Assembly (NCBI GenBank): GCA_964610875.1
Contig: CAZSWP010000016.1
Span: 1 to 64,000, forward strand
Direction: 5' to 3'
Length of the DNA stretch: 64,000 bases
From: an uncultured archaeon
GTDB taxonomy: Archaea; Asgardarchaeota; Thorarchaeia; Thorarchaeales; Thorarchaeaceae
Numbering within the stretch: position 1 is the first letter of the stretch; each line of letters starts with the position of its first letter. Shown here in pieces: positions 1-3,995 of the stretch. Under the pieces are notes generated by a model. That model saw only the letters and a list, made by a program, of their open reading frames with translations, did no database searches and was not told the DNA's origin. A program made the translations under genes and the position numbers.

Positions 1-52
1 ATTCACTAAAGAAATGTCCAACTTTGACCAGATTTCTTGTAACTGTTGGCAA
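1..52 (-). CDS. Possible 5' end of a gene running off the left edge (MPTVTRNLVKVGHFFSE...)
   Basis: TTG at 52 preceded by AGGGG; frame open to the window edge; too short to identify. Confidence 0.3.
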   Translation of the reverse strand, partial: MPTVTRNLVKVGHFFSE

Positions 53-178
53 CCCCTATTTCAATAATCAAGAAAAGTGTAAAAGCAAAACACTGTTTAT
101 TCTATTCGGGAATCGTTCCATCATTTCTGATTTTCAAGTAATTCCTATGGTCTACGATATTTTAGACTATAGAAGAAC

Positions 179-262
179 TCAGAATGGTTCTATATCAGGG
201 TCTGGGTCAATTCTAGAGTATGGTTCTATATCAGGGTCTGGGTCAGTTGTATAACATTTCAT
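179..262 (-). CDS. Putative 27-aa micropeptide MKCYTTDPDPDIEPYSRIDPDPDIEPF
   Basis: Manual translation, ATG 262 to TGA 179; internal in-frame repeat; paralog at 433-492. Confidence 0.55.
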   Translation of the reverse strand: MKCYTTDPDPDIEPYSRIDPDPDIEPF

Positions 263-503
263 GTTAGTTCATATATTCAATCAGAAAGACCAGTGTTACG
301 CACGTTATTTGATTATAGTATAATTAGATTCGGCCAAGAATGAATCAGAGTGGTAAATCATGCTACACCTCCCCCATTATCATGCACGAGCTTAAATTGC
401 AGAGAGCAACACGTGAATTGATATGGAATTCCTTATAATCGCAAAACGAATGGTTCTGCATCAGGGTCTGGGTCAGTTGTATAATATCTCATGTTAGTTC
501 ATA
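184..503. repeat. Three direct copies of ATGGTTCT(AT/GC)ATCAGGGTCTGGGTCA (184-209, 220-245, 450-475); 220-273 and 450-503 form a ~54-bp near-identical duplication
   Basis: Read directly from the sequence. Confidence 0.95.
433..492 (-). CDS. Putative 19-aa micropeptide MRYYTTDPDPDAEPFVLRL
   Basis: Manual translation, ATG 492 to TAA 433; same upstream TATGAACTAAC context as the 179-262 copy. Confidence 0.5.
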   Translation of the reverse strand: MRYYTTDPDPDAEPFVLRL

Positions 504-545
504 ATGTACAAAGCGGAATTAAACGAAATCATGGGTGTAAATGAA

Positions 546-803
546 ATGATTATTGAGACCACAATTCTAGTAGCAATTTATGCTGTCTGGATTATCATTC
601 TTGTAAATTCAATGGTATCCAGCGAAGAGATTTCGTTGACGATAGCTACACTACCATTCATAATAACATTCCCGATTACATTACTCCTTACAGCCATACT
701 AGAACCTCAACTCCCTGGGGTATTCACAATAAATTTTGCAATTATTCTGGTAGTTGGCATACTACTTTTTGTACGTTGGATTATGGCAATAGCTGGGGAA
801 TGA
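546..803 (+). CDS. Small membrane protein, about 3 TM helices, unknown function
   Basis: Hydrophobic ORF; start at 546 chosen, 504 also possible. Confidence 0.7.
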   Translation: MIIETTILVAIYAVWIIILVNSMVSSEEISLTIATLPFIITFPITLLLTAILEPQLPGVFTINFAIILVVGILLFVRWIMAIAGE

Positions 804-834
804 AATATTAAGAAACTAGAGGGAGTCCTGACAG

Positions 835-993
835 CTAATCTTTGCGTTTGAACTCGGTATAACCGCATCGACCACATGAGAACCGATTGAAGTGTTCTGC
901 CATATAGGTGCCCTTTTCACAACGTGGGCATGCTCTCTTCTGAGATGTGACCTTGCCGCTCTTTGAATCAACTTTATACATTTTATGTGACAT
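835..993 (-). CDS. rps27ae: 30S ribosomal protein eS31 (S27ae)
   Basis: Not in ORF track; MSHKMYKV...CPRCEKGTYMAEHFNRFSCGRCGYTEF zinc finger; directly after rps24e. Confidence 0.95.
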   Translation of the reverse strand: MSHKMYKVDSKSGKVTSQKRACPRCEKGTYMAEHFNRFSCGRCGYTEFKRKD

Positions 994-996
994 TAA

Positions 997-1293
997 TTAG
1001 CCCTCCGCAGATTTTTTGCCCTCGTGTCTCTTAACGATATGGTCAAGTTCAACCAGTTTCATCTTTTCTGGATTTTCGTAGATTCGTGCAAATCCCTCAG
1101 ATACTCCTAGACCATACTTTGTTTCCATCTGTCTGACAACAACAGCCATAGGGTCTGCATCAAACTGTGCGACTATCTTATCTTTTACGTCCGCCCTACT
1201 TGGAGTTCCAGTACCTCTGTGGTCTACTCTGAACTGAATCTCTTTCCTTGCAAGGGGTTTATTCTCCTTCTCATGGAGTATCTCAAATTTCAT
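997..1293 (-). CDS. rps24e: 30S ribosomal protein eS24
   Basis: ENKPLARKEI, GTPSRADVK, YGLGVSEGFARIY motifs. Confidence 0.95.
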   Translation of the reverse strand: MKFEILHEKENKPLARKEIQFRVDHRGTGTPSRADVKDKIVAQFDADPMAVVVRQMETKYGLGVSEGFARIYENPEKMKLVELDHIVKRHEGKKSAEG

Positions 1294-1392
1294 TGGTATC
1301 ACTCTTGAAATGCACGGCCCGTGCCAGCAGCGGGTCAGGCACTCGACTTGTGGTTGTCTAATAAAGTTTTCACCACTGACAAATTCTAGCAG

Positions 1393-1605
1393 TTATCTCA
1401 CCTTAAGGGCGTACTTGCCAGGTTTATCTATGTTGAGCCGCTCTGCAATGTATGAGCTCTTTCGAGGGTCATCATGTGGGTCCTTTCCTGGCAGAATCAC
1501 AACTATTCCTGTGTAAGAGGTAGATAGATTGGTACTTCTGCAATTGGGACACTGAGGTTCAGTCGTGAGATAATGACAATCACGACATGCTTTTGCTCTT
1601 GCCAT
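1393..1605 (-). CDS. spt4: Transcription elongation factor Spt4 (RpoE2)
   Basis: KACRDC...CPNC, PGKYALKVR. Confidence 0.95.
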   Translation of the reverse strand: MARAKACRDCHYLTTEPQCPNCRSTNLSTSYTGIVVILPGKDPHDDPRKSSYIAERLNIDKPGKYALKVR

Positions 1606-1620
1606 TGAATTTCCCTTCGT

Positions 1621-2205
1621 TTACTTCTTCTTCTTTGATTCACCACGGGCTGCCTTGAGGTCTTCTTCAACCCATGATGCTTCAGGCCCAATTTTCCCAA
1701 GGAATGGTTGACGCATGGTCAGACCGAGTTTCCCTGATCGGTTTCCAGATTCGAAACTAATAGACGTTATACGGGCTCGCACTTGGTCCCCCTCAGATAG
1801 GGTTCTGCCTGTTTCCTTTCCAAGGAGAGAATTGCCCTTTGAGTCCTGTGTTATGAAATCATCGCAGATCTGACTCACATGGCACAGACCATCTAATGGT
1901 CCCATTCTAATAAATGCTCCAAAATCCATGAGCTCGACCACATTTCCTTCAACAAGTTCTCCTCGAACTGGTTTGAAAACGAGTACCTTATACTGGACTG
2001 TATGGTAGGTTGCTCCATCTCCAGGCATAAGACGTCCTTGTCCAATCTCATCAATATCTATAACAGATATCATTAGGCCAATATCTCGGTCCAAGACATT
2101 CTCACTTGATTGTCGAAGGTGATTCAGTGCAGCTTTTTCTATTGGCTCACCGAACTCACTTGGGGGAATCCTTACAATATCACGGACCGTTACAACTGAA
2201 TACAT
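1621..2205 (-). CDS. rpo7: RNA polymerase subunit Rpo7 (RpoE1)
   Basis: VRIPPSEFG, PGDGA, FGAFIRMGPLDGLCHVSQI, GLTMRQPFLG. Confidence 0.96.
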   Translation of the reverse strand: MYSVVTVRDIVRIPPSEFGEPIEKAALNHLRQSSENVLDRDIGLMISVIDIDEIGQGRLMPGDGATYHTVQYKVLVFKPVRGELVEGNVVELMDFGAFIRMGPLDGLCHVSQICDDFITQDSKGNSLLGKETGRTLSEGDQVRARITSISFESGNRSGKLGLTMRQPFLGKIGPEASWVEEDLKAARGESKKKK

Positions 2206-2332
2206 TTCTAGAAGCTCCTTGTATTAGATTGATGAGTTGTAGAACAACCAGACCTCAGAATGCGCATAATCTGAGTCCACCGGCTCAGCGGTGGAACGCT
2301 TTACTAAACATAAAAACGTTGTGACAAGACCA

Positions 2333-2734
2333 TCAAATCACAATTCCTTCTAACTCGAGATGTTTTCTCCCTCTCAACATCAATACTGGAATTCTTGCTT
2401 TTCGTGCTCTCTCTCTCAATTCTTTATCATTTGTTGCAAGTATACCCTTTATTGCACCTGTATATTCTAACAATTGGTCATCAACAGAACCGGACAGCCC
2501 TTGTGACGGTACAATTTTACATCTCTTTGATATATCCTTTGCAATTCTGAACATTCTCAGTTCTAATCTATCTTGAGTATTCGCAATCTTGTTGTCTATC
2601 TCTTTCAAGACTGATTCTAAAAGGACAAACTCGATTGTCTGTTCAATCACGCGTTCTGTTTCTTTGAAGATGTCCACACCGAATTGTGCAGGTACTGCAA
2701 GAAAGTTTGTGTCAACGACCACCGTGATTGGCAT
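2333..2734 (-). CDS. PIN-domain nuclease, Fcf1/Utp24-like
   Basis: VVVDTNFL, VDD, ATNDKELR; conserved position after aIF2-gamma. Confidence 0.85.
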   Translation of the reverse strand: MPITVVVDTNFLAVPAQFGVDIFKETERVIEQTIEFVLLESVLKEIDNKIANTQDRLELRMFRIAKDISKRCKIVPSQGLSGSVDDQLLEYTGAIKGILATNDKELRERARKARIPVLMLRGRKHLELEGIVI

Positions 2735-2756
2735 ATCGTCACACCACTTTAACAGG

Positions 2757-3995
2757 TCAGACTTCAGCGTAGCCAATAAGCCGCCATTTGTTTTCCACAC
2801 GTCTACCTATTGCAATTCGTTGACCGGACTCTGCTACTACAGGACGTTTCAAAGACATCTCAATCTCATCACCGTGAAGTCGGGTAATCACACCAACTGT
2901 AGCAGCGGTTCCAACAACTAACATTAAGGGTTCTTTCAGTTTCAAGTTCTCTACAGCTTTCTTCGACTCAGAACCAACCACACGTTCCATCAGAATGGGT
3001 TTGACCATTATGGAATCAATAACTTCTGGCATCTTACTTACTTTACCTACAACATTACCAACAAGTCGGTCAGCACGGGTCATAGATGGGTCTAACATAG
3101 TTCCAACCCCAATCAACCCTCCTGGATACGCTTCTTCTAGAGAATTGCCACTACCTGAAAGAAGGCTTGTTACTTTTGCTCGAATGGGCTCAAATCCCTT
3201 ATCGGTCTTATGTCCCGGTGCTATCTCTATTTCGTCACCAATTTTCAACTTGCCTTGGACAATCGAGCCACCCACTACTCCTCCAGTAATGTCTTGAGGA
3301 AGGGTCCCTGGTTTATTGATATCGAATGAACGTGCAACAAACATCTTGGGTGGTGCATCGCTATCTCTATCAGGAGTAGGAATCACTTCTTCTATGGTCT
3401 GAATGAGCAAGTCAGCATTTGCACCAAACACGGCTGAGAATGGAATTATAGGTGCATTCTCTGCAACAGTGCCTTTGATAAATTCCTTGATCTGTTCGTA
3501 ATGTTCCATTGCTTCTTCTTTTGATACCAGTTCTATCTTATTCTGGACAATAATGATATTTTTCACGCCAACTATCTCAAGTGCATGAAGGTGTTCTGAA
3601 GTCTGTGGCATGGGACAGGGCTCGTTGGCAGCGATAACAAGGATTGCACCATCCATGATACTTGCACCGCTCAAACATGTGGCCATCAGTGATTCGTGTC
3701 CTGGACTGTCTACAAACGAAATCTCTCTAAGTACCTCTACATCTCCTCCACATTTTGGACATTTGTTGTCCTTTAGTAGGTGTGAAGTTGTGAATGATGC
3801 CGGTTCTTTGCATTTCTTACACTTCACGAGTGTAGTTGCAGCATATCCTAGTCTAATAGAAATACCTCTTCTTACTTCATCTGAGTGTCGATCTGTCCAT
3901 TCTCCAGTGAGGTAACTCACCATTGTTGTTTTTCCGTGGTCGACATGTCCTAATGCGCCAATACTAACTTCTGATTGTCCTTCGTACTTTGTCAC
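2757..3995 (-). CDS. eif2g: Translation initiation factor aIF2 gamma subunit
   Basis: GHVDHGKT, RGISIRLGY, DSPGHE, QNKIE, WRLIGY. Confidence 0.97.
   Translation of the reverse strand: MTKYEGQSEVSIGALGHVDHGKTTMVSYLTGEWTDRHSDEVRRGISIRLGYAATTLVKCKKCKEPASFTTSHLLKDNKCPKCGGDVEVLREISFVDSPGHESLMATCLSGASIMDGAILVIAANEPCPMPQTSEHLHALEIVGVKNIIIVQNKIELVSKEEAMEHYEQIKEFIKGTVAENAPIIPFSAVFGANADLLIQTIEEVIPTPDRDSDAPPKMFVARSFDINKPGTLPQDITGGVVGGSIVQGKLKIGDEIEIAPGHKTDKGFEPIRAKVTSLLSGSGNSLEEAYPGGLIGVGTMLDPSMTRADRLVGNVVGKVSKMPEVIDSIMVKPILMERVVGSESKKAVENLKLKEPLMLVVGTAATVGVITRLHGDEIEMSLKRPVVAESGQRIAIGRRVENKWRLIGYAEV

Follow-up and report, generated by a model that had tools for sequence, protein, structure and literature searches.

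Proline-rich micropeptide genes, usually adjoining the gene of a predicted Lrp-like protein, in an Asgard archaeal lineage

Peptide-receptor cassettes have been described in Bacillota, both as the RRNPP systems, for which an overview is available (PMC10075063), and as SIP/RopB, a leaderless communication peptide system (PMC10518010). By analogy, these cassettes, and the leaderless communication peptides in particular, appear to offer the closest described logic to the genes that we report here from an Asgard archaeon and its relatives. As in RRNPP and SIP, a very short peptide gene adjoins the gene of a cytoplasmic protein with a DNA-binding-type domain, and conservation is centred on the C-terminus of the peptide, presumably its active part. 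The Asgard peptides likewise evolve rapidly while their linkage to the partner is kept, and additional peptide genes stand on their own. Unlike RRNPP, however, the Asgard arrangement has no TPR receptor; its partner is modelled as an Lrp/AsnC-like protein with winged helix-turn-helix (HTH) and RAM parts and an unmatched N-terminal half. The Asgard peptides also differ from those of RRNPP and SIP in being acidic and proline-rich, without a signal sequence or hydrophobic character, and many consist of tandem cores. Further, the host is an archaeon.

The window analysed here comprises the first 64 kb of contig C16 in the 3.75-Mb assembly of this genome (G000). Two micro-ORFs lie near its start, both on the minus strand. 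Micro-ORF 1 (262-179) starts with ATG and encodes MKCYTTDPDPDIEPYSRIDPDPDIEPF in 27 codons, followed by a stop. It holds two tandem cores, DPDPDIEPY (copy 1a, 218-244, minus strand) and, 36 nt further on, DPDPDIEPF (copy 1b, 182-208, minus strand), which are joined by SRI, and the stop codon stands immediately 3′ of the final Phe. Micro-ORF 2 (492-433), likewise ATG-started, encodes MRYYTTDPDPDAEPFVLRL in 19 codons before its stop, with a single core, DPDPDAEPF (copy 2, 448-474, minus strand), and then a four-residue tail, VLRL. A repeat finder run on the window placed the three core copies in register, at spacings of 36 and 230 nt. Positions 220-273 are 93% identical to positions 450-503, and GACCCAGACCCTGAT is an internal direct repeat. 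The 54-nt block takes in the 11 nt, TATGAACTAAC, that precede each ATG and are identical between the two frames (263-273 before ORF 1 and 493-503 before ORF 2, minus strand). The earlier note on this DNA had given both ATG-started frames exactly so, and its three in-frame DPDPD(I/A)EP(Y/F) copies, its frame-preserving internal duplication (the 36-nt tandem period of ORF 1) and its shared upstream stretch were all recovered in our analysis.

These 11-mers occupy the position at which relatives carry a Shine-Dalgarno-like GGTGA/GTGAAC site. The copies in this genome have ATGAAC in place of a clean GGTGA, one mismatch from the GTGAAC of three related loci (L185, L193 and L206). A hairpin begins 5 nt past the ORF 1 stop (143-174, minus strand; energy z = -2.05 against shuffles), with T-rich runs beyond it at around 80-95. 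The 27-residue product of ORF 1 is absent from a collection of 15 billion proteins.

Comparison within the genome indicates that these frames are genes. Across the 3.75 Mb there are only four instances of the motif DP[DE]P[DE]x[DE]P, three in the window and one on contig C4, and all four copies sit in ATG-started ORFs of 15-29 codons, counted from stop to stop. The C4 copy reads MKYNDPDPDIEPF and then a stop. Over nine codons, the core of this copy and window core 1b are separated by four substitutions, all of them synonymous and none non-synonymous, such that the encoded protein is the same. Since only 16 of 81 single changes would be silent, random substitution would give this outcome with a probability of about 0.0015. 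Where the copies differ in length, they do so by 6 nt or 36 nt, both multiples of three, and keep the frame, and the flanks of the C4 and C16 copies are dissimilar except for a short ATNATGAANNAANATGA stretch around the start. Because every substitution that separates C4 from C16 is silent and the length differences are frame-keeping, the two window micro-ORFs appear, on this comparison, to be real, translated small genes and not chance frames. A point on the other side is that ORF 1 and ORF 2, compared with each other, show non-synonymous changes alone. Conservation thus acts at the codon and not the nucleotide level, a check that the earlier note had asked for, and the copy found elsewhere has its start codon and keeps its frame, where that note would have given up its reading had such copies broken frame or lacked a start. 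Its proposal of an array of peptide precursors therefore stands in part: these are peptide genes with repeated cores, while the RiPP chemistry that it attached to them fares poorly, as discussed below. A profile HMM (A2) built from the four motif copies matches the window ORFs with E-values of 1.3e-8 (37.8 bits, ORF 1) and 1.7e-8, which speaks for consistency only, the model having been built from those same copies.

The same comparison weighs against a non-coding reading, in which the repeats would be DNA or RNA elements (protein binding sites or small RNAs, for example) with one frame open by accident. Such a repeat might explain why the 54-nt similarity reaches 11 nt upstream of the ATG and why GACCCAGACCCTGAT recurs internally. 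It sits badly with the synonymous-only substitutions and the two frame-keeping length differences, with the dissimilar flanks, and with the members in other genomes, which share protein features and not DNA. Rfam returned no match at the locus in window positions 1-3000, with one weak match elsewhere in that interval, and inspection by eye for a C/D-box RNA found no canonical C box. We consider this explanation very improbable.

Bases 1-55 of the window, which are also the first bases of contig C16, are the end of a MITE-like repeat, 125 nt from micro-ORF 1. Their identity to the opening 55 nt of a dispersed repeat, 221 nt long, is 96-100%. This repeat end turned up in eleven further places, and the six copies that were read over their whole length (221-222 nt) share 98.6-99.5% identity; taken over at least 11 copies, the identity is 98-100%. 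One complete copy lies on contig C13 (57417-57637, equivalent to L145:2918-3138). The repeat has sub-terminal inverted repeats (CAAACTTGGACA and TGTCCAACTTTG) and no long ORF, and Rfam finds nothing in it. Several contigs (C1, C16, C27, C30 and C65) begin or end in it. Because window base 1 is the first base of the contig and the 55 nt match a dispersed repeat, what had been read as a co-oriented gene starting at 52 and leaving the window is the end of a MITE-like element at which the assembly broke, and no gene start.

The gene on the other side is a neighbour outside the peptide system. It encodes a small membrane protein (504-803, plus strand) convergent with rpS27ae, which is kept in 35 of 40 relatives and always adjoins rpS24e-rpS27ae. 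Matches begin at residue 13-15, so that translation probably starts at the ATG at 531 or 546; a start there leaves a gap of 40-55 nt to the divergent micro-ORF 2.

Searches by sequence did not lead from these genes to their counterparts in other genomes. No micro-ORF homologue was found with the exact motif in 60 relatives or in the GTDB species representatives, with PDPDxEPF-stop in JGI metagenomes, or with a 15-position HMM in 60 family genomes, and the matches that the motif scans returned were chance ones within large ORFs of unrelated bacteria. The exact-motif scans came back empty because the family shares protein features and not sequence; its members across genomes have no DNA sequence similarity. 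Relatives were instead reached by synteny, through homologues of the 665-aa protein encoded next to the C4 copy, and 45 loci of such homologues were fetched and examined. In 33 of the 45, a micro-ORF with a core ending in Pro-Trp or Pro-Phe adjoins the 665-aa gene. The commonest layout places it 56-230 nt upstream and co-oriented (about 24 related loci), while in seven loci it is downstream, convergent or on the opposite strand (L160, L170, L180, L195, L198, L174 and L203). The linkage is strong: 25 qualifying ORFs lie within 350 nt of the 665-aa gene (30 kb in all), where 0.23 would be expected, against two in the remaining 256 kb of these loci. The same filter found zero P-[WF]-ended micro-ORFs in 29 control loci around rpS24e/S27ae.

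The peptides of this family consist of a single core or of several in tandem, each about 12-18 residues long and ending in Pro-Trp or Pro-Phe. Examples are MKPGEPSCPEPW, MGPLEPHPEEPW and MSYNDPPTGGPQPEPF, with MITKIFDPGDPDDEPWSCKTFDPGDPDDEPW as a multi-core form. The stop codon usually follows the last core directly, and many members are only 12-16 residues in total. A Shine-Dalgarno-like GGTGA/GTGA site precedes the ATG by 4-16 nt in 19 of 27 ORFs, compared with 3.7 in shuffled sequences. The 60 nt past the stop have a mean folding z of -2.67 relative to shuffles, with 17 of 27 below -2, and a T-run often follows the stem. The window ORFs share peptide-level traits of the family. With 27 and 19 codons they lie within the range of short, ATG-started, Pro- and acid-rich frames (about 10-90 codons), ORF 1 repeats its core in frame with a 36-nt period, and the cores end in EPF-stop in ORF 1 and in EPF plus four residues in ORF 2. 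They are members of an undescribed, lineage-wide family of proline-rich, Pro-Trp- or Pro-Phe-ended peptides, in its local, Phe-ended and very acidic version. We found neither a Pfam family nor a paper describing this family, so that the earlier statement that the motif belongs to no recognised family holds for Pfam and for the literature searched, and gives way in that a family exists across the lineage.

Selection acts on these peptides as wholes. Between tandem cores within one ORF there are 27 synonymous and 7 non-synonymous nucleotide differences (the poorly periodic L209 left out), and therefore the whole core peptide is under selection and not its final codons alone. The most conserved part of the micro-ORFs is the last three codons before the stop. 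On the partner-protein tree, the terminal residue has switched between Trp and Phe independently at least 5-6 times, and the requirement seems to be for an aromatic end and for no particular residue.

A short frame that ends in this way could also act in cis. Arrest or leader peptides acting at termination include TnaC of E. coli and the PPW-ended upstream frame of AZIN1. The Asgard genes resemble these in being short ORFs that end in Pro-aromatic-stop, often stand upstream of a gene and have a hairpin behind them. Translation of the micro-ORF, slowed at Asp-Pro or Glu-Pro bonds or at Pro-Trp/Phe-stop, might control a hairpin terminator and hence read-through into the next gene. The commonest layout, with the micro-ORF upstream and co-oriented and the hairpin in between, fits such a role, as do the strong conservation of the last three codons and a second setting found in five other genomes (L213, L225, L232, L233 and L238, in G012, G036, G003, G018 and G063). 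There, a divergent gene for a 286-aa MarR/HTH_24 protein is accompanied by a PEPW-ended micro-ORF, 30-60 nt before an operon of a conserved soluble protein (82 aa, with a range of 82-102 aa) and an MFS transporter. However, no gene for such a leader to regulate is seen downstream in this genome: ORF 1 is followed by its hairpin, the T-runs and the MITE with which the contig begins, while the C4 copy stands behind the partner gene, with a convergent ThiF-like gene ahead of it. Placement beside the partner gene is variable, as the seven downstream or opposite-strand loci show. Unlike in TnaC and AZIN1, the whole core is selected and not a stall motif alone, and it is often duplicated, from which a sensor stalling at termination would gain nothing obvious. 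We regard control in cis as unlikely, and the earlier suggestion of Pro-rich leader peptides for a downstream gene is not supported, the supposed gene at 52 being a MITE end.

A further HTH protein is encoded near a micro-ORF in one more genome: at L239 (G030:C10:99293-102307), MNDPPKNPPEPW lies about 130 nt from a divergent gene for a 448-aa protein with an AsnC-type, NirDL-like HTH. Neither this 448-aa protein nor the 286-aa HTH protein of the second setting was accepted into the 665-aa family, to which they have no significant similarity.

The 665-aa protein itself has homologues in 36 of 40 same-family genomes, at 22-28% identity and frequently with two to four in one genome. Neither a Pfam family nor a PDB sequence match was found for 41 partner proteins. 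An HMM of 41 homologues matched 178 clusters among 1.84 billion representative proteins, and the family is therefore narrow; all of the best 150 of these clusters are full-length relatives or fragments. Its AlphaFold model is confident (pLDDT 84.8, pTM 0.85). Residues 317-663 match NirDL, a siroheme decarboxylase in which two Lrp/AsnC-like modules are fused (Foldseek E 1e-4; VIA Z 10.3 over 267 aligned residues), and residues 487-643 match whole Lrp/AsnC regulators of about 140-156 residues (Z 5-5.6, 135-149 aligned). The C-terminal half is thus modelled as a tandem Lrp/AsnC-like module of the NirDL type, with winged HTH and RAM, the defining combination of Lrp/AsnC being present in the predicted structure only (residues 487-643). 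The model superposes on NirDL and on complete Lrp/AsnC proteins, and so resembles Lrp/AsnC, NirDL and AhbA/B (PDB 4czc, 4czd, 2cfx and 1i1g). Unlike Lrp/AsnC, the partner has 316-360 extra N-terminal residues and no sequence-level match to Pfam HTH_AsnC or AsnC_trans_reg. Known members of Lrp/AsnC, NirDL and AhbA/B also differ in what they bind, which is amino acids or tetrapyrrole and not gene-encoded peptides. No TPR protein is among the structural matches listed for the model, and Pfam gave none either. Residues 1-360, folded alone, have no structural match above Z 3.6. Protein Atlas gave weak leads only.

Could this protein be an enzyme that matures the peptides? Yeast alpha-factor, cyanobactins and fungal dikaritins are made from multi-core peptide precursors. 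The Asgard ORFs share with them tandem short cores in one ORF with the same end residues, an organisation typical of some RiPP classes. The peptides could accordingly be precursors of a modified peptide or cofactor, with the winged-helix part of a new maturase holding the peptide in the manner of a RiPP recognition element, and the N-terminal half modifying the C-terminal Pro-aromatic. That this half is structurally unmatched and still contains invariant residues (P97 and E150) would fit an enzyme, and so would the best match of the C-terminal half, NirDL. Next to the C4 copy are the genes of a GH3-family adenylating enzyme (L144:9279-10862, minus strand) and a ThiF-like protein. In the 45 loci, the recurrent neighbours are a convergent Ig-like surface protein (16), rubrerythrin (9), GH3 (6, including this genome) and DUF1512 (5).

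These leads do not extend far. GH3 recurs beside a single subclade of the 665-aa protein (L169, L174, L182, L187 and L190, together with this genome), and among the five other GH3-linked loci a family micro-ORF occurs in L174 alone, about 570 nt from the gene as against 197 nt here. As for the ThiF-like gene, it is convergent, with a TGA within its frame, and the only association with a transporter is that with MFS in five genomes, in a different context. No ATP-grasp, radical SAM, YcaO, lanthionine synthetase or peptidase gene recurs, by Pfam, among the C4 ORFs and the recurrent neighbours in the 45 loci. Unlike in alpha-factor, cyanobactins and dikaritins, the cores are not separated by spacers or protease sites, their surroundings lack known processing or modifying enzymes, and the peptides carry no export signal. 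A leader region before the core is absent, and the members of 12-13 residues leave no room for one. With a Lrp-like protein as the conserved neighbour and no modifying enzyme recurring, the graspetide or RiPP chemistry first proposed for these cores is not supported, and a maturase role for the 665-aa protein is, in our view, improbable.

This genome has at least four peptide genes, two in the window, one on C4 and one on C3, and one full-length partner gene, which lies on C4. A tblastn search with 45 homologues returned the C4 gene alone. The C4 peptide gene stands 197 nt downstream of it, within the 350 nt used to define adjacency, and is followed by a perfect palindrome and then the convergent ThiF-like gene. 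The HMM of the 665-aa family has weak partial matches in this genome, to the C-terminal Lrp-like module, in two ORFs: one at the locus of the C4 peptide gene (C4:47180-47614, minus strand, E 7.5e-7, within a 494-aa ORF at L144:11112-12596) and one at C16:67597-68166 (plus strand, E 6.5e-6). The C3 family member, MKYNKTDPGKPPDEPFSK, was found by a looser scan (C3:128204-128260, equivalent to L272:3705-3761, minus strand) and is an orphan between photolyase-related and IF-2B-family genes. The same scan gave a possible further member, MSFNFKTWPDGPEDPPW, at C77:5420 (plus strand). The window ORFs lie between the rpS27ae operon and the contig-end MITE with no partner gene within 350 nt; they and the C3 copy are orphan paralogues.

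The ThiF-family gene is flanked by the C4 micropeptide gene and the GH3-family gene (L144:8460-9260, minus strand, equivalent to C4:44459-45259). Its one in-frame TGA (LAQLGF-TGA-KFRIGDL) falls just past the nucleotide-binding glycine loop, and may reflect a nonsense mutation, a sequencing error or codon recoding.

Relatives commonly carry orphan copies whose features are intact. One genome, G016, has a two-core micro-ORF and no detectable partner gene (the genome is about 90% complete). A genome-wide count of the PEPW-stop pattern showed no excess over a reversed-pattern control, and yielded orphan copies. The window pair could nonetheless be recent duplicates that landed beside the rpS27ae operon and are decaying without a function of their own. 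Their position is unique to this genome, as no family micro-ORF occurs at rpS24e/S27ae in 29 relatives, and a MITE lies close by. ORF 1 and ORF 2 differ by non-synonymous changes only (K/R, C/Y and I/A). The first core of ORF 1 ends in Tyr, and in ORF 2 the stop no longer comes straight after Phe; the tail of four residues there is longer than the two-residue tails after Pro-aromatic in the related loci examined, so that ORF 2 may be drifting and both frames may be decaying. Against such decay, both retain the ATG, the upstream 11-mer, the reading frame and a complete DPDPDxEP core, core 1b has kept the same protein as the C4 core through four DNA changes, and intact orphans occur elsewhere, including the one on C3. 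We think it unlikely that the window copies are functionless remnants.

We favour the view that these are stand-alone peptide genes, probably encoding trans-acting partners of the Lrp-like protein, with the window copies as orphans, and we give it a probability of roughly 50%. The usual adjacency of the micro-ORF to the gene of the Lrp-like protein suggests a peptide-and-partner pair. Because the micro-ORF can also follow the partner gene or point towards it, it is better seen as a separate gene than as a cis element. Each gene would be a compact unit of Shine-Dalgarno-like site, ATG, ORF and hairpin. Its peptide, whole or cut after each Pro-aromatic, would act in trans as the cognate partner of the Lrp-like protein, either as a ligand or as a substrate, with the exposed aromatic C-terminus as the likely contact point. 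The window and C3 orphans would then act on the product of the single partner gene on C4. Several observations count against this view. The window copies adjoin no partner gene, one such gene stands against at least four peptide genes, and most micro-ORFs in relatives are upstream and co-oriented, a layout that also fits a cis-regulatory role. The two-core micro-ORF of G016 has no detectable partner gene, the copies in this genome have no clean GGTGA site, and the window pair shows the possible signs of decay given above, with non-synonymous changes alone between its two frames. Moreover, the predicted Lrp-like fold is by itself no proof of peptide binding, its best structural match, NirDL, being an enzyme.

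We speculate further, and more tentatively, that the micropeptides and the Lrp-like protein form an Asgard peptide-and-receptor signalling system, which we think less likely than not. Genome-specific leaderless peptides, set free either whole or after cleavage behind each Pro-Trp/Phe, would bind the ligand domain of the protein through their aromatic C-terminus and switch its activity, and orphan copies such as the window pair would supply further inputs. If so, Archaea would gain their first described gene-encoded peptide-receptor pair, with a receptor fold unlike the bacterial ones.

Genes this small escape annotation. In the archaeal group closest to eukaryotes, they reveal here a pairing, present across the family and under strong selection, between micropeptides that evolve fast and a single Lrp-like protein specific to the lineage. 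The present locus contributes an acidic, Phe-ended variant to this family. It also indicates that one genome may hold at least four peptide genes per full-length partner gene, and that copies of the peptide gene are able to move to unrelated sites. If the partner protein is an enzyme, it would represent a new peptide-modifying fold. If the two are ligand and receptor, peptide-based regulation or communication in Archaea would become directly testable, with peptides that are short enough to synthesise.
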